Shown piece by piece: positions 28,313-44,520 of a stretch of DNA of 64,000 nucleotides. The stretch is from Fibrobacteria bacterium (lineage in GTDB: Bacteria > Fibrobacterota > Fibrobacteria > UBA11236): NCBI GenBank assembly GCA_039917895.1, contig JBDSIO010000219.1:78-64077 (forward strand), written 5' to 3'. Position 1 is the stretch's first letter; the number at the start of each line of letters is the position of its first letter. Position numbers and translations under genes: made by a program. The notes under the pieces are model-generated. The model searched no databases, was not told where the DNA came from, and saw nothing but the letters and a program-made list of their open reading frames with translations.

Positions 28313-28897
28313 TCAGCCCGATTTGCACCAAAGCGTATCGACATAGCGCTTCGAGCGCGCGAGGATGCGTTCCACCCGCGCCAGACCTTCGGACCCGTGG
28401 CTTGCGTTCCAATCGCTATCCACGCGATGAAACGCCTCGCCCAACAGGTCGAGTTCCGTCGGGCCGAGGATTTCGCGCGCGATGCCGAACACGCAATGGT
28501 TCTCCTTCTGGATATGCGCGCGCAGAAGGCGCGCGTAGGCGTCGCATACCAAGGCGATTTCCTTCCAATCCGGACCGCCCGGCGCAAACGCCGGGTCGAG
28601 CAACGACCCCGCCAGGGAAACCAATTGGCGTCCTTTCACATGCTCCAGCCGCATGGTTCCGGTGGGTCCGCCGATGACCGGCATCCCCCGCATTTCCAGG
28701 GCGGGAAACAGGTATTCTTCTTCCTTGGCATGATGACTAACGTCCGTGAACTCCCTGAGGAACCACAGAATTTCGGTGAGCAGGTCCCGGTCCGAAAAGG
28801 CGCCGACGGAAGCCGCCTCGGCAATGGCCTCGAGTCCGTCCAATACGCATTCCACCTTGCGGTGCTCTTCCTTCAGCATTTCGATTGGATCAGACAC
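28313..28897 (-). CDS. Hemerythrin-domain (HHE cation-binding) protein
   Basis: 194 aa with H/E pairs typical of hemerythrin-like domains (EEHRKVE, HHAKEE, LEHVKGRQ...). It is the last gene of the long minus-strand array. Confidence 0.6.
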   Translation of the reverse strand: MSDPIEMLKEEHRKVECVLDGLEAIAEAASVGAFSDRDLLTEILWFLREFTDVSHHAKEEEYLFPALEMRGMPVIGGPTGTMRLEHVKGRQLVSLAGSLLDPAFAPGGPDWKEIALVCDAYARLLRAHIQKENHCVFGIAREILGPTELDLLGEAFHRVDSDWNASHGSEGLARVERILARSKRYVDTLWCKSG

Positions 28898-28910
28898 GTC
28901 GGTTTTCCCT

Positions 28911-30236
28911 TCAGAAATTGAAGGTGGGCATTACGTAGAGGTTGTATCCCGGCCGGTAATCCTGGTCCGGACCCAAGCCCGCGGCCGCCAGCGCGACGGC
29001 GCCGTCACCGGGTAGAAAGATCCCCCCGCCGAAATGGATGTTCGCCTTGGGATGGATGGTGATCTGGATTTCCAGGTCGGCTTCCTGTCCATAGGGTTCG
29101 TCAATGGCGGCCGGCGCATTCTGAGGGAGAAAGAAATGGTATTGCGGCTTCACCTGGACGCGAGCCGCCCCGGCGGGTCCTCGCACGCAGGCGAAATCGC
29201 CGTCAAGCCGAATGTCCAAGACGCCATAGGCGGGATTAACGACGAAGTAATCCATCCAGCCGAAATAGGCATGGGCAAAATAATAGGAGGCCCGGTAGGC
29301 CGTGGCCCGGTCGTCGGACGGATCGTCGTCACCGCTCATGATGTCCAGTCCCGCATTCACCTTGTGCGCCCCCAACACGGCTCCGGCGCGCAACGCCAAT
29401 TGGAAGGCCGCGCTCGTCAGGTTTCGCCCGGCGGATAGCTCTCCGGTCTGCCAGATGAATTCCTCTTCGTAAACGAACTGTCCCAAGCGGCCGGCCAGCC
29501 GTTCTCCGGCATAGACGAGATCGTAATTGCGTACGCTTAGGCCTCCGTAGCTCCCGGCCAGGCGCGCCTGGTCATAAAACATGAACGCGTCGGCCTGATG
29601 GCCATCCGCGAGTTTGCGGTTGTAGAACAGCCCGGTCAGCAGCAGGTGGTCGTCGACGGCTTTTTCCGCGGAATCGCGCACCAAATAAGCCAGGGCGGTC
29701 AGGTTGTCCGGACCCGCATCGTAGTTGGCCGAAACGCCGTCGAAGGAGCGGGAGGTCGCGCTCCATTCCAACGTACTCAAGAACCGGCCAGACCCGAGCG
29801 AAAGCTTTTGGCGGCCCAGCGCGGCCGTAACGGGACCCTCCTTTAAGGTGGCGTAGCCCTGCAGCAGGTCCATGCCTTTGCTGTTGCCCACCGAGGCCGC
29901 TGCCGGATTGGTCGCGGGCACGGACGGCTCAGACCCCATGTATCGGGAGTCTTGGATTTCCAGGCGGATACCTGTCCGTTCAAAAGGAGCGCCCGAATAG
30001 GCCAGACGCGACCTCAAAAAAGTGTTCAGGAAAGGCTTGTTGGCATCGTCGTCGCGAACAGCCTTCTGATCGAATTCCGTGCGCGTTCGGAGCTGTCCGG
30101 AGAAGCCGAAGGCGGCGGGTGGAGGCGGCGCGAACGGGGACTCCCCAGGGGGCGCGGCGGCAATCGGACCCGCGAAAATCGTCAGCACCGCGGCGATGGC
30201 CGGGGTCCGGATCGGAACAGTCGTAATGGATTTCAT
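28911..30236 (-). CDS. Outer-membrane beta-barrel protein (alginate-export/porin-like)
   Basis: Signal peptide. Amphipathic beta-strand pattern. C-terminal ...YVMPTFNF with a terminal Phe typical of OMPs. Confidence 0.55.
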   Translation of the reverse strand: MKSITTVPIRTPAIAAVLTIFAGPIAAAPPGESPFAPPPPAAFGFSGQLRTRTEFDQKAVRDDDANKPFLNTFLRSRLAYSGAPFERTGIRLEIQDSRYMGSEPSVPATNPAAASVGNSKGMDLLQGYATLKEGPVTAALGRQKLSLGSGRFLSTLEWSATSRSFDGVSANYDAGPDNLTALAYLVRDSAEKAVDDHLLLTGLFYNRKLADGHQADAFMFYDQARLAGSYGGLSVRNYDLVYAGERLAGRLGQFVYEEEFIWQTGELSAGRNLTSAAFQLALRAGAVLGAHKVNAGLDIMSGDDDPSDDRATAYRASYYFAHAYFGWMDYFVVNPAYGVLDIRLDGDFACVRGPAGAARVQVKPQYHFFLPQNAPAAIDEPYGQEADLEIQITIHPKANIHFGGGIFLPGDGAVALAAAGLGPDQDYRPGYNLYVMPTFNF

Positions 30237-30498
30237 TGAATCCTCCCGGAGCGGGACTCAAGCAAGAAACATTCCCGCAGCCCTACCCTTCCAATCCAGG
30301 CATATACCCTTGTTTCCGCGGTGGAAGCCCGGCGGCAAACGCCCCGAATTGCAAAAACGGCGTGGAAGGGGGCGCGGCGCATGCCAACCTGGCACGCGCC
30401 GCCGCGTCGCAACCCTGATACAACCGTTTCCATCCGGCCCGGGGATCCAAACCGGCCCGGGATGGGTAACTCCATGGATACCCATGGGGGCTCCGCAT

Positions 30499-33400
30499 TC
30501 ATCCATGGCCGTGGAAATTCCCGGAAGCGGACCAATGGGTCATCGCCTGATCGATGTCCGCGGCATCCACCCGCGTCCTACCCTCGCCCTTGGCGCGGCG
30601 TTCGATTTCCTTCATTACCATGGGACGGATGAAGTCCGGGATGCGGGAAGTGCGGGCCGTGGCCGCTTCGCTCCACTCCAGCTCCGGCGCCATCTTGGCG
30701 GAGCCATCACCCCAGCTCCCGTATTTTCCGTCCATGATCTCCAGATCCACCACGTCCGCTCCTCCCGCGCGCGCCCATTTCTCGACGCGGCAGCGCGTCA
30801 TGGTGCGCATGAAGCCTTCCGGTACCCGTTCCAGCCTTTGCAGGGCTTCGGGTTTCCAGGCCAGGGTCTTGAAAGCGGAAGACTTGGCCTGGGCGCGCTT
30901 TTCCGCGCTCAAGCGGACGAAATGCCCGGTGCCGCAATTGGCGCAGACCGTCGGTTTGGCGCCGTCCAGGATAATGCCGCACAGGTGGCATTCCCAAGGA
31001 GCGATCTCCGAGGCATCGGAGGCTTCCGGCGTTGCGCTTGCCTGGGCGGAAGTTCGGGCCGGATCCGCGGAAGGGGTCGCGGCATGCGGGTTGGCGCCTT
31101 GGCCATGGGCATGCGGATTGACGCCATGGGCGTGGATATGACCATGCGCCCCGGGGTCTCCTTGGCCCGATCCCGTCATGCTTGCATGCATCTTCTCCCG
31201 GGCCTTGCCCAGCCCCGCTTCCGCCACCTCCAAGGTGATTTCCTTCGTTCCGGAGTTCAGGGCGTGTTCCTCCACCATGTTTTTCGCGGCCTTGCGCATG
31301 AATCCATCCGGCACCCGTTCCAGGCGCTTGACGGCATCTTCCGTCCAGGCCGGTCCTCCGAAGGCGTCGGAGGATATCGCCCCGGGCGCCGCTTCGGCGG
31401 CGGATACGGGGGCTGCGGGAGCAAGATCCGCGGTAGTGGGAACGGCGGTTGGCGCAGCGCCGATGCCGGCGGCGCGCAATTCGGCCTCCACCATCTCCAG
31501 GGTCACGGCCGTGATACGTTGGGTCAATGCCCGTTTTTCCAGGCGGTTGCGGATCTGCGCCGTCACCGTCGCATCCCCGGACTTTTCCAACAGGGCCAGC
31601 GCGGATTTCTCCCACATCAATTGCCGATCCCCCAGAGTTTCCAAGGACTGCCCTTCGCTGACGATGGCGCTTTCCAGCAGCTTGAACATATGCCCGCCCA
31701 TGCCGCAGATAGGGCAGGACTGGGGCCGGGATCCATGATGGACGTGGCCGCAGGCCTGGCATTTGAAGCTCAAGGCGATCTTGTCGTGGGAATCGCGCTC
31801 CTTGCCCTCGTCCGTGTCCACGATGCCCATGCGGGCCAGCGCAGCGGGAGGCAGCAGGGTTTTCAGGGCCGCGTTCAGGATCGACTCCGTGACCACGGTA
31901 TGGCCTTCGGCCACGCAATAGTTCTGGATCGCTTTCATCGCCATATTCTGCGCCATGGCCGGCACCCGTTGCATGCGGGCCTTGGCCTCGGTGGTCCAAC
32001 TCACGGTCTCCTCGGCCTGGAATTCCACCGGAGGCTTGGCCTTGGAATCCACCACCAATATGTTGCAGGGCGCCAGGCGGCACAGGTTCTCGGTGTTGCC
32101 GCCGATGTCCATGTCCTCGTCGCTATGGAAGCCGATACGGCCCACCACCAGCAGCCAGGGCGGCTCAGCCTTGACGAGCTGCAGGATCTTTTCGAAGGGT
32201 TTGCCATCCAACAAACGGATCTCGATGGCTACGCCCGCCTCTTCGGCCAGCCGCTTGGCGATGTTCAGGTAGGACTGGTAGATCTTGGCCAGCCCCGAGT
32301 CGATGATGTCTTCATGTAGCTTCTCCTGCTCTTCGAACTTGAAGACCTTACGCGCCTTTTCGGTGAGGGTCTTGTTCAGGCTTTTGAACATGGCATAATG
32401 GAAATAGGGGTCGAAGGCGGATACCGCCAGTACTTTCTTGTCCAATGTCTTCGCGAGCCGCATGGCCCGCTGCAGGCCGCCCCAGCTTCGGATGCTGCCG
32501 TCCAGGCAGACTATGATGGTGTCGGAGACGTTCTCTTCCACGGACATGCGCGTAAGCAGGACATCGCGGCGGACGCGGCGCAGCATGCGCTCGGCGACGG
32601 TGCCCAGTTGGGAATTGCCCACGCGGCCGACGCCGTGCGCGCCCAGGGCCACGAGATCGTAATCGTTGGCCGCGATGTCCTCGGCCATGGCCTTCCAATT
32701 CTTGCCTTCCAGGCTCACGGCGGCGAACTCCAGGTTATCGGTCTTGCAAGCGCCGGACATGGCCTCCAAATACGAGTCCGTGATCAGCTCCAGCCCTTTG
32801 GTGATCAGGCTGTCGTGGATCTTGCGCTGGCGGTTAAGTTCCTTCTCCTTCTGGAACTCCTCCGGAAGTCCGCCTTCCATGGCGCGGAAACGGTTGTCGT
32901 GCATCTTAGCCGCATACACGTGGCTGCCGATCATGCGGGCGCCTTCGCGCTTGCCGATCAGCATGGCCGTGCGCATGGCCTCGTTGGAAGGGACGGAACT
33001 GTCCAGGCCCACGTAAATGCGCGAGTATTTCCAGTCTACCGCCTTGGGCGCGGCTTCCCCATCGGGATGGGAGCCGGGCGCCTGGAAGGAGGGAACCGTT
33101 GCAGGGACGGCCTCAGCGGCCTCGGCAGCTATGGCGGTAACGGTGGCCGGGGCGGCCGCGGCGGCTATTGCAGACGGGGCGGAAGGGGCGGTTGCCGCAG
33201 CCGCCTCTAGGGTCGCGGCAGTTGCGGTCCCGGCGTCCTTCGGCCGCTCCAAAACCTCGCGGGCCTCCTTCATCAGTTCCATGGTGATGCGCGTGAACCC
33301 GCGCCCCTTGGCGTATTTTTCGATCTGCTCGGTGATGAACTGGCGGATCATGCCCGGGGCCCGGTTGATGGATTCAATGGCCTCGGGCTCCCATTCCATA

Positions 33401-34152
33401 CCGCCTTTGGAAGGCAGCATCACGATCTTACCGTCCTTTTCCGGAACCCGGAAAGGAGTCTTGTCGTGGATGGATGAGATCCAGAATACATAGGCGTAGG
33501 GGAATTCGTGTTGGGCGATATGGAAGCTGTCGTACTCGAACATTACGCGCGCCAGCTTCACGAATTCATGTCGCGGATCTTCCGGACCGATCACCTCCAC
33601 GGCCGCGTTGACCTGGAAGCTGATGTAGTCCGGGGCGTTGCCGGTATAGTGCAAAGCCGCCAGGGGCGTGGCCGAGATATTCCTGAAGGTGGTCTTTTCG
33701 AAAATCTCGAGGCTGCTCAGCGATCGGTAGTCGACCTTCTCCCGATCGAAATAGAAGCTGGAAACGGCTTTCAGCCTTTCCTGCAACGATTCCTGCCAGG
33801 GACGGCCGCGGGTGCGTTCAATCGTCTCCTTGAACAGGTTGACGTAGGATTCCAGGTATTCCCGCTTGGGCAGGAAGCCCACGCCTTTGTTGCCGCAATT
33901 GAACGGAAAGGTCTGGCCGCGCGCCTGGGTGATCATCACGGGCAGGTGCGAAGTGAAAAAGGCGGGATTCCCCTTTCCCAACAGCTTGTCGTACATGGCG
34001 CGGCGGCCTTGTTCGATCCACTCTATGTACCGCTCCGGCAGGCTTTCCATCGGCAGGTCGACCGGTCCCTCGGCCAGTTCCACGCGAAGGCGATCTCCTG
34101 CGACTACGACCTTGGGCAGGCCCTGAAATTGTCTGGCCGTATTCTGCTGCAT
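30499..34152 (-). CDS. 1217-aa multidomain protein: N-terminal ~270-aa unknown domain, six PCP_red-like repeats (protochlorophyllide-reductase ChlB C-terminal-domain-like), tandem universal stress protein (Usp) domains, two rubredoxin-like zinc ribbons, and Ala-rich and His-rich linkers
   Basis: Repeats of the form (L/M)xW(T/E)xEAxxRLxR(V/I)PxFxRxxxxxxxExxAxxxGxxxITxExxxxA occur six times (e.g. VSWTTEAKARMQRVPAMAQNMAMKAIQNYCVAEGHTVVTESILNA; PAWTEDAVKRLERVPDGFMRKAAKNMVEEHALNSGTKEITLEVAEAG). The Usp motifs are IYVGLDSS...GAHGVGRVGNSQLGTVAERMLRR and IIVCLDGS.... The zinc ribbons are CQACGHVHHG...CPICG and CHLCG...CANCG. There is an HGHIHAHGVNPHAHG His-rich segment. Confidence 0.7.
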   Translation of the reverse strand: MQQNTARQFQGLPKVVVAGDRLRVELAEGPVDLPMESLPERYIEWIEQGRRAMYDKLLGKGNPAFFTSHLPVMITQARGQTFPFNCGNKGVGFLPKREYLESYVNLFKETIERTRGRPWQESLQERLKAVSSFYFDREKVDYRSLSSLEIFEKTTFRNISATPLAALHYTGNAPDYISFQVNAAVEVIGPEDPRHEFVKLARVMFEYDSFHIAQHEFPYAYVFWISSIHDKTPFRVPEKDGKIVMLPSKGGMEWEPEAIESINRAPGMIRQFITEQIEKYAKGRGFTRITMELMKEAREVLERPKDAGTATAATLEAAAATAPSAPSAIAAAAAPATVTAIAAEAAEAVPATVPSFQAPGSHPDGEAAPKAVDWKYSRIYVGLDSSVPSNEAMRTAMLIGKREGARMIGSHVYAAKMHDNRFRAMEGGLPEEFQKEKELNRQRKIHDSLITKGLELITDSYLEAMSGACKTDNLEFAAVSLEGKNWKAMAEDIAANDYDLVALGAHGVGRVGNSQLGTVAERMLRRVRRDVLLTRMSVEENVSDTIIVCLDGSIRSWGGLQRAMRLAKTLDKKVLAVSAFDPYFHYAMFKSLNKTLTEKARKVFKFEEQEKLHEDIIDSGLAKIYQSYLNIAKRLAEEAGVAIEIRLLDGKPFEKILQLVKAEPPWLLVVGRIGFHSDEDMDIGGNTENLCRLAPCNILVVDSKAKPPVEFQAEETVSWTTEAKARMQRVPAMAQNMAMKAIQNYCVAEGHTVVTESILNAALKTLLPPAALARMGIVDTDEGKERDSHDKIALSFKCQACGHVHHGSRPQSCPICGMGGHMFKLLESAIVSEGQSLETLGDRQLMWEKSALALLEKSGDATVTAQIRNRLEKRALTQRITAVTLEMVEAELRAAGIGAAPTAVPTTADLAPAAPVSAAEAAPGAISSDAFGGPAWTEDAVKRLERVPDGFMRKAAKNMVEEHALNSGTKEITLEVAEAGLGKAREKMHASMTGSGQGDPGAHGHIHAHGVNPHAHGQGANPHAATPSADPARTSAQASATPEASDASEIAPWECHLCGIILDGAKPTVCANCGTGHFVRLSAEKRAQAKSSAFKTLAWKPEALQRLERVPEGFMRTMTRCRVEKWARAGGADVVDLEIMDGKYGSWGDGSAKMAPELEWSEAATARTSRIPDFIRPMVMKEIERRAKGEGRTRVDAADIDQAMTHWSASGNFHGHG

Positions 34153-34203
34153 ATCGATTCCTTCCGTCCGCCGTTCGTCCGCGGTTCGTCCACTCTACAA
34201 CAG

Positions 34204-35493
34204 CTATTTGAAATGGAAGCCGAGTTCGGCTTCCCGTTCGCGCTTATGGCGCGTCATCAATTCCGGAGTTACGGGTACGCCTTCGGTCCGGGCCCGCGCC
34301 TCCAACTTCCGTTTCACCACCGGCCTCAGGAACAACGGCAGCTTGGACAGCCGTTCCCGCGCTTCGGGGGTCCATACGACTTCCGTGTCCCCGTCCGGTT
34401 TCCGCACCGGTATGATCGCGCCCCCGGCCGGCTCGTATTCACAGCTGGGGTCTTCCGCCATGAGATTTCCCTTGGCCAGGGATCGGGCCCGGCAGCCCCC
34501 GCACACCAGCTTGTATTCGCAACCGCCGCAACGGCCCTCCAGCAGGGCCGGATTGCGCATGGAGGCCAGCAGCACCGAGTCGTCCCAGATCTTCCAGAAA
34601 CCGTCCCGTCGTACATTCCCGGCGGAAAGTTCCATGTACGGGCAAGGGGTGATCTCCCCTTTGGGGGTGATGCGGCAATAATGGCTGCCCGCCAGGCAAC
34701 CGCCGCCGTCGTAACCTTCGGCGCGCGTGTAGGGCGATGCGGGATCGGCTTGATGGAGGATGCGCTTGAAATGGGGCGTGCAGCGCGTTTGCACCAGGAT
34801 GCCTTTGGCCGTGGGTTGGATGGCGGCGATTTCCTTGAGCGCGGCTTCATATTCCGCGGCCGAGAGATCCATGGAGCCTTCGCCCCGGCCCACGCAGACC
34901 AGGAAGAAGAAATTGATGATGGACGCGCCGAGTTCGCGGGCCATGTCCACGGCTTGCGCAATCTCGCTCCGGTTCCATCGCGTTATCGTGAAGTGGATCT
35001 GGGCATGCATGCCGGCCGCGCGGCAATGTTTTACCGCCTCGCAAGTCCTGGCGAAAGCGCCGGGCATGCCCCGGAAAGAATCGTGGGCGCCGGGACGGAT
35101 GGAGTCCAGGCTGATCCCCATGCCTTCCAGGCCCGCCGCCCTGAGTTCCTCCGCGCGCTTGCGGTTCACCAGCACCCCGTTCGTGCCCAGCACCATCCGC
35201 AGACCCGCCTCCACTCCGGCCTTGACGAACCCGTCCAGGCCCGGATGCAACAGGGGTTCGCCTCCGGTGAGCACGATGATGGTACCCGGCGCCCGCGCGC
35301 CGATGTCGCGGAACAGGGATGCGACCTCCTCATCGGCCATCTCCCCGTCCATGACCGACGCCCGTTGGGTGGCGTCCATATAACAATGGGCGCAATTCAG
35401 GTTGCAACGCCGGGTCAGGTTTACGGCCACCAGGTACGGTTCAAACTCCCGCTCCCCGCGCCGTTCTTCCTTTTTTCCCGTTTCCATCGGCAA
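34204..35493 (-). CDS. Radical SAM / SPASM-domain enzyme (AhbC/NirJ/PqqE-like) with a C-terminal PCP_red-like domain
   Basis: CNLNCAHCY (CxxxCxxC). The SPASM Cys-rich region is GGGCLAGSHYCRITPKGEITPCPYM...CGGCEYKLVCGGCRARS. The C-terminal VVWTPEARERLSKLPLFLRPVVKRKLEARARTEGVPVTPE matches the repeat family in the adjacent 1217-aa protein. Confidence 0.75.
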   Translation of the reverse strand: MPMETGKKEERRGEREFEPYLVAVNLTRRCNLNCAHCYMDATQRASVMDGEMADEEVASLFRDIGARAPGTIIVLTGGEPLLHPGLDGFVKAGVEAGLRMVLGTNGVLVNRKRAEELRAAGLEGMGISLDSIRPGAHDSFRGMPGAFARTCEAVKHCRAAGMHAQIHFTITRWNRSEIAQAVDMARELGASIINFFFLVCVGRGEGSMDLSAAEYEAALKEIAAIQPTAKGILVQTRCTPHFKRILHQADPASPYTRAEGYDGGGCLAGSHYCRITPKGEITPCPYMELSAGNVRRDGFWKIWDDSVLLASMRNPALLEGRCGGCEYKLVCGGCRARSLAKGNLMAEDPSCEYEPAGGAIIPVRKPDGDTEVVWTPEARERLSKLPLFLRPVVKRKLEARARTEGVPVTPELMTRHKREREAELGFHFK

Positions 35494-35524
35494 CCCCGCA
35501 CCCTGTCCCGCTATCGCGGGCGGT

Positions 35525-36241
35525 TTAATACTCGAAGGCGACTTTCGCGTCCTTGCCCGCTTCCACCTTCACCTGCACGGTTTTCGCGCCCAGGGCCTCA
35601 TGCCAGATCTTCAACGTATAGGTTCCCGCGGGCACGTCGGCCAATATGAACTCCCCGGCCGGTCCGGTCACCGCCGCGTAGGGATGCGGCAAGGCCCAGA
35701 TGTATCCCTGCATGAAATCATGGGCATCGCACTCCACCGAGATCAGGCCTTCCTTGCGGAGGATTTTGGTGTTTTCCACGACCTGGCCCTTCTTAGGCAG
35801 CGCCATGTTGATCAGGTTCTTCTTGGCCGCGCCGTCCACCAGGTAGAAGTGCGAATTGTGGAGCATGTCGTCGTCGTTGCGCACTTTCAGGGTCGCGCCC
35901 ACCGGGGCCACAAGTACGTGGGGAGTGAACTTGCAATTGGTGTTGTCGTAGAAGATTTCGCCTGCCGCGGCTTTCTTGCCTTCCGCAATCTTGTCGATCA
36001 TCACCACGGCGAATTGGAGGCCGCCGCCCGCTCCCGTCACGTATTTTTGGGCCGCGATCTTGGCGCCGCACTGCTCCGGATTCTTGCTGACCACTTTCAT
36101 CTCGTCCGCCGGGGCCTTCCCTTTGATCTTGATGGCCCCGCTGATGCTGCCGCCGTTGGCGACGGCGATCTCCTTGTATTGCGCCGAGGCCGCCACGGCT
36201 CCGGCCAGCATGAACGCGCATAAGGTATTGATGGTTTTCAT
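35525..36241 (-). CDS. Periplasmic cupredoxin-like (type 1 copper) protein
   Basis: Signal peptide MKTINTLCAFMLAGAVAASA (RBS AACGGAGGA before the ATG at 36241). Candidate copper ligands are H in MLHNSHF and the C-x2-H-x2-M motif (VECDAHDFMQG), as in amicyanin/pseudoazurin. Confidence 0.5.
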   Translation of the reverse strand: MKTINTLCAFMLAGAVAASAQYKEIAVANGGSISGAIKIKGKAPADEMKVVSKNPEQCGAKIAAQKYVTGAGGGLQFAVVMIDKIAEGKKAAAGEIFYDNTNCKFTPHVLVAPVGATLKVRNDDDMLHNSHFYLVDGAAKKNLINMALPKKGQVVENTKILRKEGLISVECDAHDFMQGYIWALPHPYAAVTGPAGEFILADVPAGTYTLKIWHEALGAKTVQVKVEAGKDAKVAFEY

Positions 36242-36281
36242 TTCGATCCTCCGTTTTGGGATGGGTTTTCCATGGCTGGGC

Positions 36282-37394: not shown

Positions 37395-37402
37395 ATCCGC
37401 GC

Positions 37403-38134
37403 CTAGTTCCTTCCCGTGATCCAGGTTTTAATGGTTTGGATGTCCTCGTCGGAGAGGGGCGCCGCCGCTTCGGCCGGCATCCTTACGCCGTAGGGCGGGG
37501 TCGCCTTGAAGATCTTCAGGAACAGGTAGCTGCTGTCCGGTACCCCCGGCAGCACCCGCATCATATTGATGTTTTTTACCGTCAGCATCTCGATCGACTT
37601 GATGTTGACCAGGCTGTCCCACGCCGCGCCCGATTCCAGAGTCAGCCTGGTTTGCATAAATCCGGTGCCGCCGGGCTTGATGTGGCATTTCTCGCAATGG
37701 GTCTTGAAGATGGGCAGCACGTTGGCCGTGAAAAAAGCCCGGTCCAGGCACTCCACCGGCTTGGGGAGCCTGGAACAATCGATGCAGCGCGAGGGAGGAT
37801 TGGGGAGTAGGCAAGAGTCCACTGCCACGCAACGCGCGGGAGGATTGGGCAAAGCGCAGGAATCGGGCACAGCGCAGCGCGCGGGGGGATTGGGGAGCAG
37901 GCAAGAATCCACCGCCAGGCAACGCGCGGGAGGATTGGGCAGAGCGCAGGAATCGACGACGCAGCCGGCTGAGGCGGGATTCGCGATGCAGGGATTCGGC
38001 TTGATGAGAGCTCCGCCGGCGGTCAGACCCACGCCGTCTCCGGCTTTCATGCAGGCGATGAACAGGGCGGGAATAACGATGGCAGCCGCCAGCAGTCGGG
38101 ATTTCCCGCGCAGCCCTTGTTGCAAGCGGTTCAT
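37403..38134 (-). CDS. Lipoprotein c-type cytochrome with five tandem Cys-containing 14-15-aa repeats
   Basis: Lipobox (ALFIAC). Repeats DSC(A/L)LPNPPARC(L/V/A)AV occur five times, followed by a class I cytochrome c domain with CEKCH. It overlaps the downstream cytochrome gene (ATGA-type coupling at 38131-38134). Confidence 0.6.
   Translation of the reverse strand: MNRLQQGLRGKSRLLAAAIVIPALFIACMKAGDGVGLTAGGALIKPNPCIANPASAGCVVDSCALPNPPARCLAVDSCLLPNPPARCAVPDSCALPNPPARCVAVDSCLLPNPPSRCIDCSRLPKPVECLDRAFFTANVLPIFKTHCEKCHIKPGGTGFMQTRLTLESGAAWDSLVNIKSIEMLTVKNINMMRVLPGVPDSSYLFLKIFKATPPYGVRMPAEAAAPLSDEDIQTIKTWITGRN
37790..37975. repeat. Coding tandem repeat (~42-45 nt unit, 5 copies) inside the lipoprotein cytochrome gene
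   Basis: Repeated cgcgcgggaggattgggcaaagcgcaggaatc-like units are visible on the + strand and encode the Cys-Pro-rich peptide repeats. Confidence 0.6.
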
Positions 38135-39153
38135 GGCGTCACCTCCGTGTCTTTCGTGAACAGGATGAAAAAGGGATTCGGCTTACGGATCAGGGAGCGG
38201 ATGTAATGGACCAAGGCCCATTTCCTTTTTTCCCCAAGGGCGTTCCGCTGTTCGGCCGGCATTTTTTGCAACGCTGCTTCCGTCGGTTGGGTGAGCAGCC
38301 AAGCCTGCAACTGATCGATTTCGGCGGCCGGATAGGCTTCCTTGTACTTGACCGGATCCACCGTAGCGTCTCCGGAAATGAGGAAACCGTCGAGAGCGTA
38401 GGCGGGCATGGGCGTGCCGTTGAGGCCGGTGGTGAAGGTGCGGTACAGGGTCCCGGCGTCGTTCCCCGCCTTGTAGCGATACGCGGTCAGGTTCCAGGGG
38501 AGGATTTTGCGGCCCCAGTCATCGTCCAGGGTCTTACCGGATTTCCCATCGCCTTTGCCGGAGCCGCCGTGGCAGGCCCAGCATTCCATCAGCATGTACA
38601 CCAGCTTGCCCTCCTTTACCGCTTGCGGAGTACTCTCGGGAACCGCGGGAACCTCCATGGGGGAGGGCGCGCCTTCCTTGAAATCCGGAGAAAAAGTCTT
38701 GAGGAAGGCGACCACGTCCAGGCGCTCCTGCAGGGTAAGAGTCGTCCCCCAGGCCGGCATCTGCGTTCCCGGAACCCCTTTTTCCACGATGGCCAGCAGA
38801 TCCGCATCGGTGGGCAGCTCTCCGCTCGGGGTCGAACGGAATTTGAACATGCCCGCGGTGAAATCGCGCGGCCGCGGATTCAGGTATTGGCCCGCGGCGC
38901 TCCGGCCGTCGCCGTTTTCGCCATGGCAGGCCGCGCAGGATTTGGAGTAGACGGCTTCGCCCCGGGACAGGGAAGGCGATGACAAAGCCGCCTGGGCGGG
39001 CCCGGAGGCGGCGCTTGCCCCGTGTAATGCCACGATGGCGGCAAAACCGATCGCCCGCGAAAGACGGCCGGACAGGTTGAGGGGATAGGCATTCAAGATG
39101 TACCTCCCGTTTCTCTCATTCATGGGTGGATACCACATCAAATTCCATACCAT
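38131..39153 (-). CDS. Periplasmic diheme c-type cytochrome
   Basis: Signal peptide. CAACH and CWACH motifs. Alternative starts at 39138/39123. Confidence 0.65.
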   Translation of the reverse strand: MVWNLMWYPPMNERNGRYILNAYPLNLSGRLSRAIGFAAIVALHGASAASGPAQAALSSPSLSRGEAVYSKSCAACHGENGDGRSAAGQYLNPRPRDFTAGMFKFRSTPSGELPTDADLLAIVEKGVPGTQMPAWGTTLTLQERLDVVAFLKTFSPDFKEGAPSPMEVPAVPESTPQAVKEGKLVYMLMECWACHGGSGKGDGKSGKTLDDDWGRKILPWNLTAYRYKAGNDAGTLYRTFTTGLNGTPMPAYALDGFLISGDATVDPVKYKEAYPAAEIDQLQAWLLTQPTEAALQKMPAEQRNALGEKRKWALVHYIRSLIRKPNPFFILFTKDTEVTP

Positions 39154-39312
39154 ATTTCCTGGTGTTTATTGCGGAACCGGGAAGCTTCGGTTTAAGGATG
39201 GTTGGGCTCATAAGCTTCAATCTATCCGCGGCCGTTGCTTCGCGGATTACGCGAAAAATGCCAGCTTGGCATGCATTCCGGCCCCATTTTGGTCCTTATG
39301 GCACGCATTGGG

Positions 39313-40845
39313 CTAACGCTTGGATGCGGCGGCGCGCCTGCGCAGGAACCAGATGAGACCGGCTTCCAGCACGATGGCCAGGGCGGCCCGCTTCGAAGCC
39401 GGGGCCAGGGGATTCTCCGCGCGGGCCGGCTTCAGGTACAAGGTAAACCAGGAGGTTACCCCACGGGAGCTGCCCGTCTCGCGCGACAATCCGTCCCAGA
39501 CGGAAAAAGCGATGGGCGCGAAGCCTCCGGGCTCGAAGGCATACCGTCCAGGCTCGGACCGTTTGCGCGTGAACACGGCCCACCATTCCCCGTCCGCATA
39601 ACCCGCGTCGACGCTGATCGTTCCGGGAATCCGCGCCAGGTTTCCCGCGCCCTTAGCCGCATAAACCTCACCCGTATCCGTGCCGAGATCGCGGAACCAG
39701 AGCTCGGCGGGATTCCGCTTGTCGCCGGAAAGGAAGTAGGGTTTACCCGCCCCTTCGATGGCCTTGCCGGGAATCTGAATGGCGATGGCATCGGAAAATA
39801 CCGCCCCGGAATCGCTGCCGGCCGCGTCAATGGGACTATTGGCGCCTTTGCGTTGCGCGCTCATATCGTGCCAGGAGACCAGCACGGAAACGTAGTCGCT
39901 ATCGTAAACGGCCCTCACCTCCACGGCGTTGGCCGCTGGAAAGAAATCCCTGCGCGCTTCGATCACCTGGCCGACCACGGGGAACAAGGCCGGCTTCGCA
40001 CGGGTGAAGGCGTCTCGCCCCGGCTTGGATCCCAATTCGCCGGGAACGGCCTCGGCCGTCACCAATGAAGCGTATCCGGGTTCGTCGCCGGGACTCAGCG
40101 AATGGATGTAGTCGACCAAGGCCCAGCGATCCTTTTCCTCGATGGAGGCCGTGTAGCTGGGCATTGGCGTGCCGTTGAGCCCGGTCATGATGGTGCGGAA
40201 GATATCCTCGCGCCGGGGCCCGCCGCGGAAGGTCCAACGCCGCGTCAGATCCGCGGGCCGGATGGCGTGGCCCCAATCGTCGTTCAGGGTCGGTGCGGAC
40301 TCCCCGTCGCCGCGGCCCAGCTTGCCATGGCAGTCCATGCATTTGTTCTCGACGAAGAGTTTGCTGCCCCGCTCCGCCGATTCCTTGCTGAAAGCCGGAG
40401 GCTTAACAGCGGCGATGGGTTTGGGGTGGTTGGCGGTATCGGCGAAATCGGAATTGAAGCCCTTGATGAAGGCGACGAGATCGCCAAGCTCTTCTTCGGA
40501 AAATTCCGGCCAGGCCGGCATACCCGTATAGGGCATGCCGCTCCGGATGATGGATTTCAGATCCGCATCGGTGGGAGATTCCCCGCTTTCCGTGGTGCGG
40601 ATTTTGAACGATCCCGAGGTGAAATCGCGCGGCAGCGGCCGGAAGAACTCCGCCCCGTCCCCCTTGCCCTCGCCGCCCGTACCATGGCATTGGGAGCACT
40701 TGTCCAGGTAGATGGCCTTGCCCGCCGCGGCCCGGGCATCCGTAGCCGGCGCGTCCGCCGCGCGCGCAATGGGAGCGTAGGAAAGCGCGGCCGAGATCAC
40801 ACCCGCGAGGGCGAGGGTAGCGGAAAGCCTGCGATGGGTATTCAT
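39313..40845 (-). CDS. Membrane-anchored diheme cytochrome c fused to an EB_dh-like heme-b domain (NxrC-like gamma-type subunit)
   Basis: Signal peptide. CSQCH and CMDCH motifs. The C-terminal half has EB_dh-like segments (VRAVYDSDYVSVLVSWHD..., AIAIQIPGK, PYFLSGDKRNPAELWFRDLG, FSVWDGLSRETGSSRGVTSWFTLYL). A C-terminal TM helix AALAIVLEAGLIWFLRRR follows. Confidence 0.55.
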   Translation of the reverse strand: MNTHRRLSATLALAGVISAALSYAPIARAADAPATDARAAAGKAIYLDKCSQCHGTGGEGKGDGAEFFRPLPRDFTSGSFKIRTTESGESPTDADLKSIIRSGMPYTGMPAWPEFSEEELGDLVAFIKGFNSDFADTANHPKPIAAVKPPAFSKESAERGSKLFVENKCMDCHGKLGRGDGESAPTLNDDWGHAIRPADLTRRWTFRGGPRREDIFRTIMTGLNGTPMPSYTASIEEKDRWALVDYIHSLSPGDEPGYASLVTAEAVPGELGSKPGRDAFTRAKPALFPVVGQVIEARRDFFPAANAVEVRAVYDSDYVSVLVSWHDMSAQRKGANSPIDAAGSDSGAVFSDAIAIQIPGKAIEGAGKPYFLSGDKRNPAELWFRDLGTDTGEVYAAKGAGNLARIPGTISVDAGYADGEWWAVFTRKRSEPGRYAFEPGGFAPIAFSVWDGLSRETGSSRGVTSWFTLYLKPARAENPLAPASKRAALAIVLEAGLIWFLRRRAAASKR

Positions 40846-41654
40846 TCCGCGCGCTCCTGGGCCCTGGGTTTCTGCCCCGTGAACCGGTAGAGGAATAGGA
40901 TGACGTCCCAGATTTCATCCTCGGAAAGGAATTTCTCCCAGGCCGGCATCGCCGAGGCCCAAGGAGTAGACTCTTCGGGAAGGCCCGGACCTCCCTTCGC
41001 GATGCGCCAGAAGAGGTAGGACTCCTGCAACATGGCGATGGTGGTGGGATCCTGGAAATTGGCGGGCAGGGGATCGAAGCCGTGGGAATGGATGCCGTCC
41101 CCTTTCAGGTTGTCCCCGTGGCAGAACACGCAGTTCCGGTAATACACCTTGCGGCCGTCCGCCACGTGCGCGTCGAAGGCCGCCGCATCCTTGTCCTCCA
41201 GCTCCCGAAAGGGATTCGACGCCGTGAGCAGGTTGATCTTCTTGCCCTTGAAATCCATCTCCCCCGGCGGGGCGGGATGGATGGTGCGCGCATTTGCCGG
41301 GGCCGCCACCTCCCGCGAGGCGTCTCGGTAGGCCGCGTAGCCGGCCAGCAAAGGGATGATCGCGGCCAAGGTCCAGAGCAACGGGGCGAAACGCCGTTCC
41401 GTAAAGAAGCGCAGCAGGGCAAGCGAAGCCGTGCGCAAGCGTCCCGAATCCGCCGAGAGATAGATGAGCAGCACGGCCGTGAGCACGGCCAGGTATAGGC
41501 CGATGATGGACGAAGGCAGCGGCGGCGTCAACGCGTAATTCAAGACCAGGAAGAATCCCGACCACCAGGCCCCCATCCAGACGAGGATGGGCGGCTTCAG
41601 GAAGCGCAGTCCTATCAGCACCAGCAGAACGGGCCCGAGTATCAGCAGGTTCAC
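40842..41654 (-). CDS. Polytopic membrane protein with a C-terminal monoheme cytochrome c domain
   Basis: Four predicted TM helices followed by CVFCH. Its start overlaps the upstream gene's stop and its stop overlaps the downstream gene's start. Confidence 0.6.
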   Translation of the reverse strand: MNLLILGPVLLVLIGLRFLKPPILVWMGAWWSGFFLVLNYALTPPLPSSIIGLYLAVLTAVLLIYLSADSGRLRTASLALLRFFTERRFAPLLWTLAAIIPLLAGYAAYRDASREVAAPANARTIHPAPPGEMDFKGKKINLLTASNPFRELEDKDAAAFDAHVADGRKVYYRNCVFCHGDNLKGDGIHSHGFDPLPANFQDPTTIAMLQESYLFWRIAKGGPGLPEESTPWASAMPAWEKFLSEDEIWDVILFLYRFTGQKPRAQERAE

Positions 41655-42469
41655 CGCTTCCCCCTTTGCGCGGAAAGGTACGCGACCATGGCCTTGATGT
41701 CCCCGGCGGAGGTCTTGTCGTAGAATCCCGATGCCTTGAGCGTATTGGCCATCAGGCCCTTGGGATATCCCTTGGGCGTTACCGCATCCGGATCCATGAT
41801 GGATTCGGAGATCAGGCTGGGTTTGAGACGCTTGCCGACATCGAAGAGACTGGGGCCCACCAGCTTGCCGGGCTGATCCAGCCTATGGCAACCGGCGCAT
41901 CCGTTAACGGTCAACAACTCCTTGGCGGTCCTGGGGACCGTGGTTGCCGCGGAAGCGGCCGGGGCGGCCGGACCATCATTTGCGACCGTACCGGAGGGCG
42001 AAAACGCGTGACGGGTCAGCATAGTGACGTTCGGCGTACCGCCCAGGCTTTGCAAGTAGGCGATCACGGCCATGATTTCCCCGTCGGAAAGATTGATGGG
42101 CGGCCCATGGATGGGGGGCATGCCGGGGCTGTAGCCTTCGACGATGAAAGCGTTGGGTTCGTAGATGGACTGGGCCAGGTACTCCACATCCGACATTCCC
42201 GGCCTTTGCTTGCCGGCGCGGGCGCCGATGCCGCCCAGATCCGGGAACCGCCCGGGCTTGTCCGATCCGATGGTATGGCAGCCCAGGCAGGTGCCCTTAC
42301 CGCCCACGATTTCCTGGCCGGCCTGGACCAGGTCATCCGTGGTCATGTCCGCACGTACCTCCAGATCCTTGGGAGGGTGGACCTCCTTCTGCGGGACCAT
42401 CTGCCCGATGTAGGCGTAGAACGCCGTGACCAGCACGGTGAAGAGGATGATCTTCAATACGTTGATCAT
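41651..42469 (-). CDS. Membrane-anchored diheme c-type cytochrome
   Basis: This is the real 272-aa gene embedded at the C-terminal end of the artifactual 695-aa track ORF. It starts MINVLKIILFTVLVTAFYAY (TM helix), then CLGCH and CAGCH. Its ATG at 42469 overlaps the upstream gene's TGA (ATGA). Confidence 0.6.
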   Translation of the reverse strand: MINVLKIILFTVLVTAFYAYIGQMVPQKEVHPPKDLEVRADMTTDDLVQAGQEIVGGKGTCLGCHTIGSDKPGRFPDLGGIGARAGKQRPGMSDVEYLAQSIYEPNAFIVEGYSPGMPPIHGPPINLSDGEIMAVIAYLQSLGGTPNVTMLTRHAFSPSGTVANDGPAAPAASAATTVPRTAKELLTVNGCAGCHRLDQPGKLVGPSLFDVGKRLKPSLISESIMDPDAVTPKGYPKGLMANTLKASGFYDKTSAGDIKAMVAYLSAQRGKR

Positions 42470-44520
42470 GGCGCCGCCTCCTTCCCCGTGTCCCAATCCT
42501 TGCGGCCCGAAAGGCTGGTGAGCCAGAAGACGATGGAGATGAAGGCGAAGAAGATCAGCACCGTCACCGACACCACGATGGAGGCGAACCCCAGGGTGGG
42601 CGTGAAGGCGTCGACGGATTCGTCCCGCATCACCCCGTAGACGTGCCAATGCTGGCGGATGCCGGAGCGGACGTAGCCCATCAGCCCCATCAGCCAGGTG
42701 AAGGTGATGGCGATGAGGATCAGCGCGTATTGCGAGCGCATCGGCATTTTCCCCCAGCGGATTTCGCCCGTGGTGCGCGCGTTGCGGAACATGAAAATGT
42801 CGATGACGGTCACGGAGATCATGGCCGTGAGCACCGAAGCGACCTGGGGGACGGAAAGCCGGATGCGCACCTTGGCTTCCACGAAATAGCCCAGCACGCC
42901 CAGGGCGATCACAAAGAGCGCGGTGAGGGCGAAAATCAGGAACTGGGCCAGGTTGCCTTTGGCGGCCCAAGGCGCGATGGATCGCTTGTTGCCCCGGCGG
43001 TAGAGCAGGAAGCTGACATAGGTGGTCAGGATCAGGATGTTCACGGCGGTGTTCTTGGCCGACATCACTCCCAGCACGCCCAGGGCGGGATGATGCGCGC
43101 CGCCCATCTTGCGCGCCTCCTCCACGGTAGCCACCAGGGAATGCGGCGTCGCCCACACCAGGAAGCACACCGTGATCGAGCCCAGCAGCCATTTGATGAA
43201 CTTGCGGAAGCGTTCCGCCCCTTCGATGCGTTCCATGCCCAGCCACAGGTAATAGTTGGCGGCCAGGAACAGGGTGCCGATCAACACCGCCTGGATGATG
43301 AAAAGCCAGGAGAAAGCGCCGCCCATCAGGGTCATGCCCATGTTCTGGGAATAGGCGTAGATCTCCTTGCCCAGCCAATACCCCGCGAAAGGCAGCGGGA
43401 GCAGGGCGCTGATGGCGATGAAGTTTCCGATGTACCCCATCCAGTCGTAATGGGCCCGTTCCTCGTCCGTCTTGGCCCCCATGAACTTGAAAGCGCCGTA
43501 AGCTCCCGCGATGGATCCGCCGAAGGCGATATTGGCGATCAGACGATGCACGTTGATGGGCATCCAGGTGAAGTTGTGCACCGCCTGCCAGCGGTTGACC
43601 AGTTCGCCCGACTGGGTGATTCCATTGGGGGAATTCATGAAGGTGAGCCACGCATCCGCGATGCAGATGATGGCGACCCCGACCAGGTTGAGGCAGACGC
43701 CGAGGGCCAGGTGCACGCGCGGATGGAACTTTCCCCAACCGTAATAGTAGGCGTACATGAAGATGGCCTCGGCGAAGAACAGGGCTACATAAGGCATGAA
43801 GGTCCAGCTGAAGATGGAGACCAGGTAGGCGGTCAGTTTGGGATACAGAATCAGTAGCATAAAGGTGAGCATCGCGCCCAGGGAGGCCGTGAACGAAAAG
43901 GACGTGGACAGCAGCTTGGTGAATTCATGGGCGAGATGATCGTATTTGCGATCCTTGGTGCGGTACCCGATGTATTCGATGGTCAAGGCGAACATGGGCA
44001 CCGCCAGCACGAAGGCGGCGAACATCAAATGCAGCTGGGCCACGATCCAGATGGCCACGCGGCTGCCGATGACCGGGAACCTGCGGTAAGCGGGTTCGGA
44101 GCCGGGTTTGGTATTCGCGTAAACCTTGGGCGGCTGCGCAACCGGCGCGCCTGGAGCATGGGCCTTGAGTATCCAGGTCACGATGGTAGTGATGTCCTCG
44201 ATGGAAAGCGCGGGATGGGCCGGCATGGGCACGGCGCCCCAGGCCCCCGCGCCTCCGGCATGCACCTTTTCCGCCAATCGGGCGATGTCGGCCGTACCGT
44301 ATTTCGCCGCGATTTCCTTGAAGGCGGGTCCCACCACCTTATGGTCCGGCTGATGGCACACGAGGCAATCGCTCTGCTTCATCAATTCCTGGGCATTCTG
44401 GGCCTTCTGGGCCTTCACGGCCTCCTCACCCCCTGCCGGCGCGGCTCCGAGACACAGCAACGCCAACAGCGCCGCCAACCGCCAAGCAAAGCGTTTCCGG
44501 CGGATGATTCCCTGATCCAT
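42466..44520 (-). CDS. Cytochrome c551/c552-like domain fused to a cytochrome bd-like (CydA-related) polytopic membrane protein; putative novel terminal oxidase or quinol-interacting module
   Basis: 684 aa. Signal peptide. CLVCHQPDHKVVGPAFKEIAAKYG...IVTWIL is a class I cytochrome c domain. At least 12 TM helices follow, similar to the cytochrome bd subunit I family. It is the first gene of the array. Confidence 0.65.
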   Translation of the reverse strand: MDQGIIRRKRFAWRLAALLALLCLGAAPAGGEEAVKAQKAQNAQELMKQSDCLVCHQPDHKVVGPAFKEIAAKYGTADIARLAEKVHAGGAGAWGAVPMPAHPALSIEDITTIVTWILKAHAPGAPVAQPPKVYANTKPGSEPAYRRFPVIGSRVAIWIVAQLHLMFAAFVLAVPMFALTIEYIGYRTKDRKYDHLAHEFTKLLSTSFSFTASLGAMLTFMLLILYPKLTAYLVSIFSWTFMPYVALFFAEAIFMYAYYYGWGKFHPRVHLALGVCLNLVGVAIICIADAWLTFMNSPNGITQSGELVNRWQAVHNFTWMPINVHRLIANIAFGGSIAGAYGAFKFMGAKTDEERAHYDWMGYIGNFIAISALLPLPFAGYWLGKEIYAYSQNMGMTLMGGAFSWLFIIQAVLIGTLFLAANYYLWLGMERIEGAERFRKFIKWLLGSITVCFLVWATPHSLVATVEEARKMGGAHHPALGVLGVMSAKNTAVNILILTTYVSFLLYRRGNKRSIAPWAAKGNLAQFLIFALTALFVIALGVLGYFVEAKVRIRLSVPQVASVLTAMISVTVIDIFMFRNARTTGEIRWGKMPMRSQYALILIAITFTWLMGLMGYVRSGIRQHWHVYGVMRDESVDAFTPTLGFASIVVSVTVLIFFAFISIVFWLTSLSGRKDWDTGKEAAP

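Follow-up and report, generated by a model that had tools for sequence, protein, structure and literature searches.

The stretch of DNA analysed here (called the window, meaning all 64 kb of it) is a contig of an NCBI metagenome-assembled genome (MAG) labelled 'Fibrobacteria bacterium', with proteins MEO6096051-68. The subject of the analysis is an array of 12 consecutive minus-strand open reading frames (ORFs) at positions 28313-44520, named g1 to g12 in the order of transcription. An earlier interpretation made from the DNA letters (the sequence-only reading) had described them as 12 co-directional genes forming one electron-transfer conduit, and listing and translating the ORFs confirmed the coordinates. 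Almost all of its domain calls were verified in searches of Pfam, NCBIfam and PDB. The gene order it gave is correct in that there are three c-type cytochromes (g2, g3 and g5), but these do not all precede the EB_dh protein, which is the fourth gene. The genes are as follows.

g1, 42466-44520, minus strand: monohaem domain of the c551/c552 type (CxxCH at residue 52) between a signal/anchor and a bd-like membrane protein (CydA-like, OR-N type)
g2, 41651-42469, minus strand: dihaem cytochrome c with an N-terminal anchor; CxxCH at residues 61 and 191
g3, 40842-41654, minus strand: 3-4 transmembrane (TM) helices and a C-terminal monohaem cytochrome c domain (Pfam Cytochrome_CBB3 and Cytochrom_C; TM scans)
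g4, 39313-40845, minus strand: protein resembling an alternative NxrC; its signal peptide is followed by a dihaem c domain, an EB_dh (haem b) domain and, at the C-terminus, a TM helix
g5, 38131-39153, minus strand: periplasmic dihaem cytochrome c, a paralogue of the N-terminal domain of g4 (Pfam matches)
g6, 37403-38134, minus strand: lipoprotein with the lipobox ...LFIAC, 15-aa repeats that each have two Cys, and a monohaem domain at the C-terminus (CEKCH, residue 147)
g7, 36282-37394, minus strand: fused cytochrome-porin resembling Cyc2; the signal peptide is followed by one CSQCH (residue 37) and a barrel of 16 strands, and the C-terminus reads ...HVFF
g8, 35525-36295, minus strand: periplasmic type-1 cupredoxin (amicyanin-like C-x2-H-x2-M; predicted), then a CarboxypepD_reg/NOMO-like Ig domain
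g9, 34204-35493, minus strand: radical-SAM/SPASM enzyme of the cytoplasm, from the AhbD/NirJ clade, that ends in a PCP_red domain
g10, 30499-34152, minus strand: cytoplasmic 1217-aa fusion protein
g11, 28911-30236, minus strand: AlgE-type outer-membrane porin (Pfam Alginate_exp, 1.6e-29); adjoins the unit defined below and is not a member of it
g12, 28313-28897, minus strand: hemerythrin HHE protein (Pfam Hemerythrin, 6e-17); likewise adjoins the unit and is not a member

At g1/g2, g2/g3, g3/g4 and g5/g6, the four junctions where overlaps had been reported, stop and start codons do overlap by 4 nt, as ATGA or GTGA. Most other junctions are also tight (+8 nt at g6/g7, -14 at g7/g8, +31 at g8/g9, +51 at g9/g10 and +13 at g11/g12). 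However, gaps are not tiny or negative throughout, as had been claimed, because g4 and g5 are separated by 159 nt and g10 and g11 by 262 nt. The conserved unit comprises ten genes, g1 to g10 (30499-44520), and not twelve. Both g11 and g12 were placed outside it because of the 262-nt gap before g11, because they are not conserved in related loci and because relatives carry unrelated genes (TonB receptor, nitroreductase, amine oxidase) 3' of g10. The ten genes form a predicted respiratory operon made up of three modules, each of which occurs alone elsewhere, namely the outer-membrane haem-porin with its cytochrome partners (module A, g5 to g7), an inner-membrane bd-like complex (module B, g1 to g4), with which the cupredoxin g8 travels, and a pair of cytoplasmic proteins (module C, g9 and g10). 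Their predicted locations support a span across the outer membrane (g7), periplasm (g5, g6 and g8) and inner membrane (g1 to g4). This part of the conduit first proposed therefore stands, but g9 and g10 have neither signal peptides nor TM segments; being cytoplasmic, they are better seen as maturation or accessory proteins than as links in a conduit.

Conservation of the linkage was assessed using the contexts of g7 homologues and 80 loci from GTDB genomes, scored by tblastn with all of the window proteins. The cytochrome domain of g6 adjoins g7 in 62 of the 80 loci and g5 does so in 45, a g8-like gene is present in 24, g1, g3 and g4 occur together in 11, g9 in 10 and g10 in 12. No g11 was found in the 80 loci, and g12 gave one match, which was weak. 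The full g1-g10 block was found at 50-80 % identity in Fibrobacteria MAGs (L002/L009, L005, L006, L008, L012, L015, L016 and L050). In other phyla the order is rearranged and the genes are still together (L020, L029, L032, labelled Rhodothermales, and L081, labelled Deltaproteobacteria). That the linkage survives rearrangement is the strongest evidence for functional coupling. The g1-g10 array thus recurs beyond chance, in at least 11 of 80 independent genomes, and g11-g12 do not (0 to 1 of 80).

Module B begins with g1, in which Pfam finds Cyt_bd_oxida_I (1.2e-20) and Cytochrom_C, and which matches the cytochrome c of PDB entry 2d0s at 2e-21. Against the CydA chains 9r2g and 5doq only the N-terminal ~230 residues align, and none past template residue ~257. 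Within this part g1 keeps the equivalents of the CydA haem and channel residues His19, Glu107 and His186, and no canonical quinol-binding Q-loop was detectable in the same alignments. A hydropathy scan gave a leader plus ~13 hydrophobic segments (~13-14 in all). These properties can be set beside those of bd-like proteins reported to lack the Q-loop and all quinol-binding residues and to have ~14 TM helices (PMC3578206, PMC6606698). A quinone-linked membrane module, as first proposed, is not borne out by so short an alignment to CydA and a Q-loop that bd-like proteins are reported to lack. The core of g1 is 73-78 % identical across FCB phyla and has >7400 matches. The three genes that follow it, with 4-nt overlaps, are arranged alike in all of the bd-like loci examined. 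In g2, Cytochrom_C (3.5e-16) is matched in two stretches, in agreement with the CxxCH and TM scans, and the gene is syntenic in all block-bearing loci. A 270-aa orthologue of g3 is present in every bd-like locus examined. The matches for g4 are Cytochrome_CBB3 (5e-24) and EB_dh (1e-11) in Pfam and DMSO_red_II_gam (4e-14) in NCBIfam, and its dihaem domain matches PDB 6h5l_B at 6e-42.

The cupredoxin g8 probably starts at an internal Met19. Among its homologues three of the ligands (H116, C159 and H162) never vary and the fourth, M165, shows at least 90 % conservation, with C-D-x-H-x-[FW]-M kept in 16 of 18. In a profile search it matched the blue-copper protein 5fc9 at 2e-5 and amicyanins at ~1e-4, and Pfam identified the CarboxypepD_reg domain. 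Judged by these ligands and the profile matches, g8 is a genuine type-1 cupredoxin, and copper binding is predicted.

The same set as g1 to g4 has been described as the bd-like/alternative NxrC cluster of Nitrospira (bd-like_3 with alt_NxrC_2), Nitrospina and Kuenenia (PMC3578206, PMC6606698), and the parts said to be shared with the nitrite oxidoreductase (NXR) cluster of anammox bacteria and Nitrospina do correspond. The roles described for the NXR-associated cluster are filled here by g1 (bd-like protein), g4 (alternative NxrC), g3 (membrane-bound monohaem cytochrome), g2 (dihaem cytochrome) and g8 (cupredoxin), and one or more cupredoxins, a zinc-finger (zinc-ribbon) protein and a nearby Kuenenia-type NXR are common to the nitrite-oxidiser/anammox cluster and the window. 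This comparison relied on published descriptions of the Nitrospira and Kuenenia clusters, with direct alignment for NxrA against 7b04. Module B can be matched as well to the OR-N proteins within the cytochrome bd superfamily (Murali et al., preprint 10.1101/2021.01.16.426971), as g1 has N-terminal CydA homology that includes haem ligands and lies in an operon with alternative electron donors (c cytochromes and a periplasmic cytochrome b), and to 'TO_1' of Ca. Manganitrophus, which is found with a periplasmic cytochrome b (PMC9040806). There are also differences. Unlike the nitrite oxidisers, the host has a Fibrobacteria denitrifier-type genome; g1 carries a fused c551-type domain; a Cyc2-like outer-membrane module sits between g4 and g8; linkage to NXR is not kept in close relatives; and the radical-SAM and PCP_red/Usp genes, which go unmentioned in the cluster descriptions consulted, belong to the cluster here.

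The relationship to NXR can be examined in the window itself, where an operon lies beyond g12.

19715-25880, minus strand: NXR-like operon identified with Pfam, with NxrA (22401-25880), NxrB (21267-22397), NxrC/EB_dh (20397-21257) and a NarJ-like chaperone (19715-20572)

NxrA, 2.4 kb beyond g12, scores 927 bits against the NXR-A of Kuenenia (PDB 7b04_B) and has a twin-arginine (TAT) signal, SRRSFIK. On these sequence features the adjacent molybdenum enzyme, already described as NXR-like, is a true homologue of the Kuenenia-type periplasmic NXR. The array had been suggested to feed this enzyme. However, NxrA was not found within 10 kb in any of the 80 g7-bearing GTDB loci, including the 11 with the full block, nor was it found in L092 or L093, two of the four additional loci recovered with g1 homologues. 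On the other hand, an NXR-like operon is directly upstream of the bd-like, cupredoxin, radical-SAM and PCP_red/Usp genes in the other two, distant loci (L090, labelled Gemmatimonadaceae, and L091, labelled Latescibacteria), where the molybdenum subunit is only 39 % identical to NxrA of the window. The conclusion drawn from the 80 GTDB loci, that adjacency to NXR is specific to the window, was softened in the light of these two loci, and the link is recurrent and not obligatory. L090 and L091 have identical gene order and nearly identical gene lengths; in both, a 121-aa ORF lies between the A and B subunits and three dihaem/EB_dh proteins flank the NXR-like operon.

Module A is built around g7, which had no match in sequence searches of Pfam, NCBIfam or PDB. 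There are 366 close homologues, all unnamed, with an invariant mature N-terminus 'EPY.A.R.G.KCS.CH.N..GG..RT' and the C-terminus ...HVFF. The N-terminal signature of the family, AEPY[ILMF]A.R.G..C..CH, resembles that of Cyc2, AxPxFAR[QK][TY], and a few members read A.PRFA[AS]RTG. In a profile search of 1.84 billion representatives the family comprised at least 1318 clusters (E<=1e-3, 50 % identity). It is found mostly in phyla of the FCB group and is common in Gemmatimonadota, Marinimicrobia, KSB1, Latescibacterota and Fibrobacterota. Canonical Cyc2 was not found among the 150 matches listed for the g7 profile, all of which belong to the g7 family (E<=1e-41). The link between g7 and Cyc2 rests on motif and fold only, and we treat g7 as Cyc2-like in architecture and not as a demonstrated member of Cyc2.

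Cyc2 has been defined by a signal peptide, one CXXCH, a 16-strand porin, a length of at least 365 aa, AxPxFAR[QK][TY] upstream of the haem motif and PxL downstream (Keffer et al. 2021, PMC8406198). The hydrophobic leader of g7 ends ...LVSA/EP and is followed by a single CXXCH, which is invariant in 42 aligned homologues and single in nearly all of 148 cluster representatives. Its 16-strand barrel resembles OprO/OprP, and its length is 370 aa from the first ATG or 364 aa from the start in the NCBI record. A signal peptide, one N-terminal CxxCH, a 16-strand OprP-like barrel and, counted from the first ATG, ~370 aa are shared with Acidithiobacillus Cyc2, Mariprofundus Cyc2PV-1 and Leptospirillum Cyt572. 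The set of partners also follows the logic of the rus operon (cyc2-cyc1-cox-rus), in which a cytochrome in the outer membrane is combined with a dihaem cytochrome in the periplasm, a cupredoxin and a terminal complex in the membrane. However, g7 has an invariant N..GGG.R motif instead of PxL, its lipoprotein cytochrome partner g6 is obligate, its dihaem partner resembles 6h5l_B, the amicyanin-like cupredoxin has an Ig domain in addition, and the membrane partner is a bd-like complex, not an aa3 or cbb3 oxidase. Matches to 'Cyc2' made with FeGenie have been reported in metagenomes of Calditrichota, Gemmatimonadota, KSB1 and similar phyla (PMC9769843), and these surveys may have detected the g7 family.

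The partners of g7 are cytochromes. The soluble g5 matches 6h5l_B at 2e-50; we take this structure to be the nitric oxide (NO)-binding cytochrome c complex of Kuenenia. The match of g6 to Cytochrome_CBB3 in Pfam is weak (2.8e-4), and its linker contains 15-aa units with two Cys each (DSC[A/L]LPNPPARC), encoded by 45-nt tandem repeats at 37784-37957; distant homologues keep only the C-terminal cytochrome domain. The porin-cytochrome conduits MtrCAB, PioAB/MtoAB and Geobacter Pcc likewise co-encode an outer-membrane barrel, a periplasmic cytochrome and a lipoprotein cytochrome. However, MtrCAB and Pcc consist of a large barrel around a cytochrome with 8-10 or more haems, and the barrel here has 16 strands and the proteins have 1, 1 and 2 haem motifs. 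Module A is often found alone as a three-gene operon (L019, L034 and L039). Where module B is absent it adjoins a terminal oxidase, which is cbb3 in three loci (L004, L023 and L026) and haem-copper COX1 in L051. This fits a role in electron uptake, with module B holding the place of a terminal oxidase.

In module C, Pfam finds Radical_SAM (2e-24), SPASM and PCP_red (6e-10) in g9, which aligns end to end with the NCBIfam models for AhbD and NirJ2 (TIGR04545, TIGR04055) and scores 289.7 and 290.4 bits, compared with cutoffs of 500. AhbD is a haem b synthase, and NirJ and NirJ2 act in haem d1 biosynthesis. On these scores g9 is a relative of AhbD and NirJ2 and a member of neither equivalog. It shares the radical-SAM and SPASM domains with them, but has an extra PCP_red domain, is always paired with PCP_red/Usp and split-barrel proteins and adjoins bd-like genes. 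The window also contains two genes for haem synthesis near the array.

9285-10958, minus strand, and 13593-15017, plus strand: HemY-type protoporphyrinogen oxidase and HemN genes

HemN and HemY score above their own NCBIfam cutoffs, so AhbD is not needed here for ordinary haem b. As the score of g9 is also below the cutoff, an ordinary AhbD is unlikely. HemN-like and amine-oxidase genes also border the g1-g10 block in L002 and L006, so that genes for haem biosynthesis recur around the operon.

The domains of g10 are, in order, a PNPOx-like split barrel (residues 1-245), PCP_red, a low-complexity linker, tandem Usp, PCP_red, a zinc ribbon, two PCP_red, a second zinc ribbon and two PCP_red. Pfam recovers five PCP_red, two Usp and a rubredoxin-like ribbon, and leaves the N-terminal domain unannotated. 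Sequence searches of Pfam, NCBIfam and PDB with that domain found nothing beyond the PCP_red part, and a fold search gave a split barrel of the HupZ/HutZ type. According to the domain library, PCP_red is the C-terminal domain of the protochlorophyllide reductase B subunit. This giant protein had been called unprecedented; it has 507 homologues, and its parts are encoded as separate genes elsewhere. Fibrobacteria-type genomes have full-length forms of ~1100-1200 aa, L090 and L091 have a form of 1039 aa, and forms of 640-900 aa without the N-terminal domain are found in Nitrospirota, SAR324, Dormibacteraceae and Actinobacteria. The score of g9, the PCP_red domains and the presence of HemN and HemY together point to tetrapyrrole chemistry for module C. 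Nothing relevant was found in the literature on PF08369/PCP_red in a bd-like context.

The radical-SAM and Usp/PCP_red genes are no more than 10 kb from the bd-like genes in all four g1-homologue loci, and module C is next to module B in the SAR324 locus L089 as well, and likewise in the block-bearing GTDB loci (g9 in 10 and g10 in 12 of the 80). Module C therefore accompanies module B in every FCB or SAR324 locus examined. The arrangements in the four loci are as follows.

L090 and L091: NXR-like operon, then module B, g8 and module C
L092: module C split into small genes, a cupredoxin, then module B
L093: alternative complex III (ACIII), aa3 oxidase, module B, module C

Alongside the split module C, L092 and L093 encode a ParA/CbiA (Mrp-like) ATPase, a CopD-like protein, a small ferredoxin and several small ORFs that lack annotation, and these are possible further maturation factors.

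The remainder of the window is rich in respiratory genes, namely cbb3 with FixG, molybdenum cofactor genes, NXR, NnrS, NosZDF, ScdA/RIC and NorCB. Together, the genes of this island amount to a nearly full denitrification set plus the Kuenenia-type NXR, and the host looks like a microaerobic denitrifier and not a nitrite oxidiser. Neither bc1 nor ACIII genes were found in the window, and a scan of it with Rfam gave zero matches. The features outside the array that were not listed above are as follows.

2000-6578, 16340-18571, 50773-56040 and 59377-63025: parts of the respiratory island, with a fused CcoNO cbb3 oxidase and FixG, MoeA, MoaA, NosZ/NosD/NosF, the di-iron protein ScdA/RIC and a NorC/NorB-like pair
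26231-27160, minus strand: Cys-rich 309-aa ORF between the Crp-family gene and NxrA; no match in Pfam or NCBIfam
27356-28288, plus strand: Crp/Fnr-family ORF
44901-46175, plus strand: NnrS-family membrane protein (Pfam NnrS, 1.8e-23), divergent from g1

The only perfect FNR/CRP-type palindrome in the window, TTGATCCGGATCAA, is at 27444-27457, within the 5' end of the Crp/Fnr-family ORF. The position of TTGATCCGGATCAA suggests that this gene is autoregulated or that its true start lies later. A scan for FNR boxes gave 25 matches in the window with 17 expected, which is not an enrichment over shuffled sequence, and upstream of g1 there is only one FNR-like site, with two mismatches. The intergenic region between the divergent g1 and NnrS genes contains perfect short tandem repeats at 44867-44918, TTGCAAGGCGGACCAAG (2.3 copies) and GGACCAAGTTGCA (2 copies), which overlap the TTG codon mechanically assigned as the start of the NnrS ORF and may form an array of binding sites for a regulator. 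A further repeat, at 46183-46250 between NnrS and a class II ribonucleotide reductase gene, consists of 6.8 copies of the 10-nt unit CCTCAATCGT with 93 % matches. Two ORFs of 1159 aa flank the array (22401-25880 and 46263-49742), and an inverted duplication was considered. It was rejected because the ORFs are unrelated (NxrA and class II ribonucleotide reductase) and the window has no long repeats; the equal length is a coincidence.

From the domain identities, predicted topology, gene order and conserved linkage, we infer a donor, a direction of flow, a terminal acceptor and a role for module C, and the reading we favour, held tentatively and at a little under even confidence, is electron uptake across the outer membrane to the bd-like complex, with module C maturing a tetrapyrrole cofactor. 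In this mechanism, module A would be an outer-membrane electron gate made up of the g7 porin with one c-type haem on an N-terminal plug, the lipoprotein g6 and the soluble dihaem protein g5. A soluble extracellular or periplasmic reductant, most plausibly Fe(II), would reduce the g7 haem, and electrons would travel via g6, g5 and g8 to the haems that g4, g2, g3 and g1 carry on the periplasmic side. The bd-like haem site would then be the end of the chain and reduce O2; alternatively, the quinone pool or a docked NXR-type enzyme may receive electrons from the complex. Module C would make, modify or deliver a tetrapyrrole cofactor needed by module B. A bolder form of this proposal is speculative and, in our view, unlikely: g9 and g10, with the HupZ/HutZ-like split barrel and PCP_red/Usp/zinc-ribbon scaffolds, would be the missing maturation set of OR-N bd-like complexes, making or inserting a non-canonical haem, and in Fibrobacteria the complex would be wired to the Cyc2-like porin as a complete chain for oxidation of extracellular Fe(II) (or Mn(II) or humics) in heterotrophic FCB bacteria, with O2 or, via the neighbouring NXR, nitrate as acceptor.

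Several observations weigh against electron uptake as set out above. The literal filter for the upstream Cyc2 signature failed, as g7 reads A-E-P-Y-I-A-V-R-T, with V for R and otherwise similar, and PxL four residues after CXXCH was found in none of the 148 g7-family representatives, g7 itself reading V-N-R-T-G-G-G-K-R-T. Without PxL and failing the PxFAR[QK][TY] filter, g7 cannot confidently be assigned Fe(II) oxidase activity by transfer from Cyc2. At the bd-like end, the position of CydA Glu99 is Tyr in g1, and homologues have been reported in strictly anaerobic anammox bacteria (PMC3578206, PMC6606698), which argues against an obligatory role as an O2 reductase. For module C, a split-barrel fold binds flavins as often as haem, and two Nitrospirota-type loci (L087 and L088) have the module without a bd-like gene next to it. 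In L088 a radical-SAM pair adjoins S-adenosylmethionine synthetase and S-adenosylhomocysteine hydrolase genes, with no respiratory genes. As to the operon, the 159-nt gap between g4 and g5 could hold an internal promoter, and scans for consensus promoters and terminators were uninformative, with counts no better than in shuffled sequence. Finally, in a general respiratory island such as the window, adjacency by itself is a weak argument for coupling.

The main rival reading gives module B a different role, as a quinone-interacting hub like ACIII and not an oxidase, linking the quinol pool to periplasmic partners; it is rather unlikely on balance, and it has several observations in its favour. 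Such a hub could feed an NXR-type enzyme working as a nitrate reductase, and also Nos, Nor and cbb3, and via module A could send electrons outward or bring electrons from Fe(II) in for nitrate reduction. Module B lies beside NXR-like operons, directly upstream of it in L090 and L091, and beside ACIII and aa3 oxidase in L093, and this fits an electron hub or quinone-interacting complex equally well. In the window the NXR-like enzyme is 2.4 kb from the array, the NxrC-like subunit g4 could dock NxrAB, and Nos, Nor and cbb3 genes are present but neither bc1 nor ACIII. Moreover, an ACIII-like or reverse-electron-transport role has been proposed for the cluster, which occurs in anaerobic anammox bacteria (PMC3578206, PMC6606698). 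What lowers our estimate is that g1 has no detectable Q-loop and only its N-terminal third aligns to CydA, with quinol-binding residues reported lacking in bd-like proteins, that none of the 11 block-bearing relatives has NXR within 10 kb, and that in L093 ACIII is already present beside module B, making an ACIII-like role redundant there.

It is decidedly improbable that the array is a set of independent genes juxtaposed in a respiratory island, with no dedicated chain, a housekeeping AhbD (g9) co-expressed to meet a need for haem and a stress or regulatory protein (g10). The window is indeed crowded with respiratory genes of many kinds, modules A, B and C are each found alone elsewhere, the AhbD and NirJ2 models score g9 equally, and the radical-SAM pair of L088 has the non-respiratory neighbours noted above. 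However, the linkage of A, B and C outlasts reordering across phyla (L020, L029, L032 and L081), four junctions are translationally coupled, and C adjoins B in every FCB or SAR324 locus examined, while g9 reaches 290 of the 500 bits set for AhbD and HemN and HemY supply a haem b route. The possibility to which we give the least weight, as highly improbable, is that the operon is an NO or nitrosative-stress system in which the bd-like complex reduces or detoxifies NO or another N-oxide and is co-controlled with NnrS. Genes of this kind are at hand, as NnrS is divergent from g1 in the window and in the same position in L002 and L005, a Crp/Fnr-family regulator, hemerythrin, ScdA/RIC, NorCB and NosZ are within the window, and the dihaem domains of g4 and g5 match 6h5l_B. 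Yet the other block-bearing loci lack NnrS (1 of 80), known NO reductases show no catalytic similarity to the complex, the outer-membrane haem-porin is left unexplained, and the FNR-like site upstream of g1 has two mismatches and belongs to a class of sites not enriched over shuffled sequence.

The array itself is confirmed, and the interpretation first given to it is supported in part. The components of the operon are of known kinds. What is new is that a Cyc2-like module is inserted into a bd-like cluster and, more than this, that a haem-type radical-SAM/PCP_red/split-barrel set consistently accompanies bd-like complexes, an association of which no mention was found in the literature searched. 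The function of bd-like (OR-N) proteins has been an open question since the first Nitrospira genome: they might be the terminal oxidase, anchor NXR or lead to the quinone pool. That module C is found alongside bd-like genes in SAR324 and throughout FCB phyla points to a special tetrapyrrole cofactor and supplies candidate genes for co-expression. In one lineage the bd-like complex is hard-wired to an outer-membrane haem-porin, and this coupling argues that the complex is at the receiving end of a periplasmic high-potential chain. If the g7 family does not oxidise iron, metagenomic 'Cyc2' calls in these phyla (PMC9769843) may be over-interpreted; if it does, many supposed heterotrophs would participate in iron cycling.

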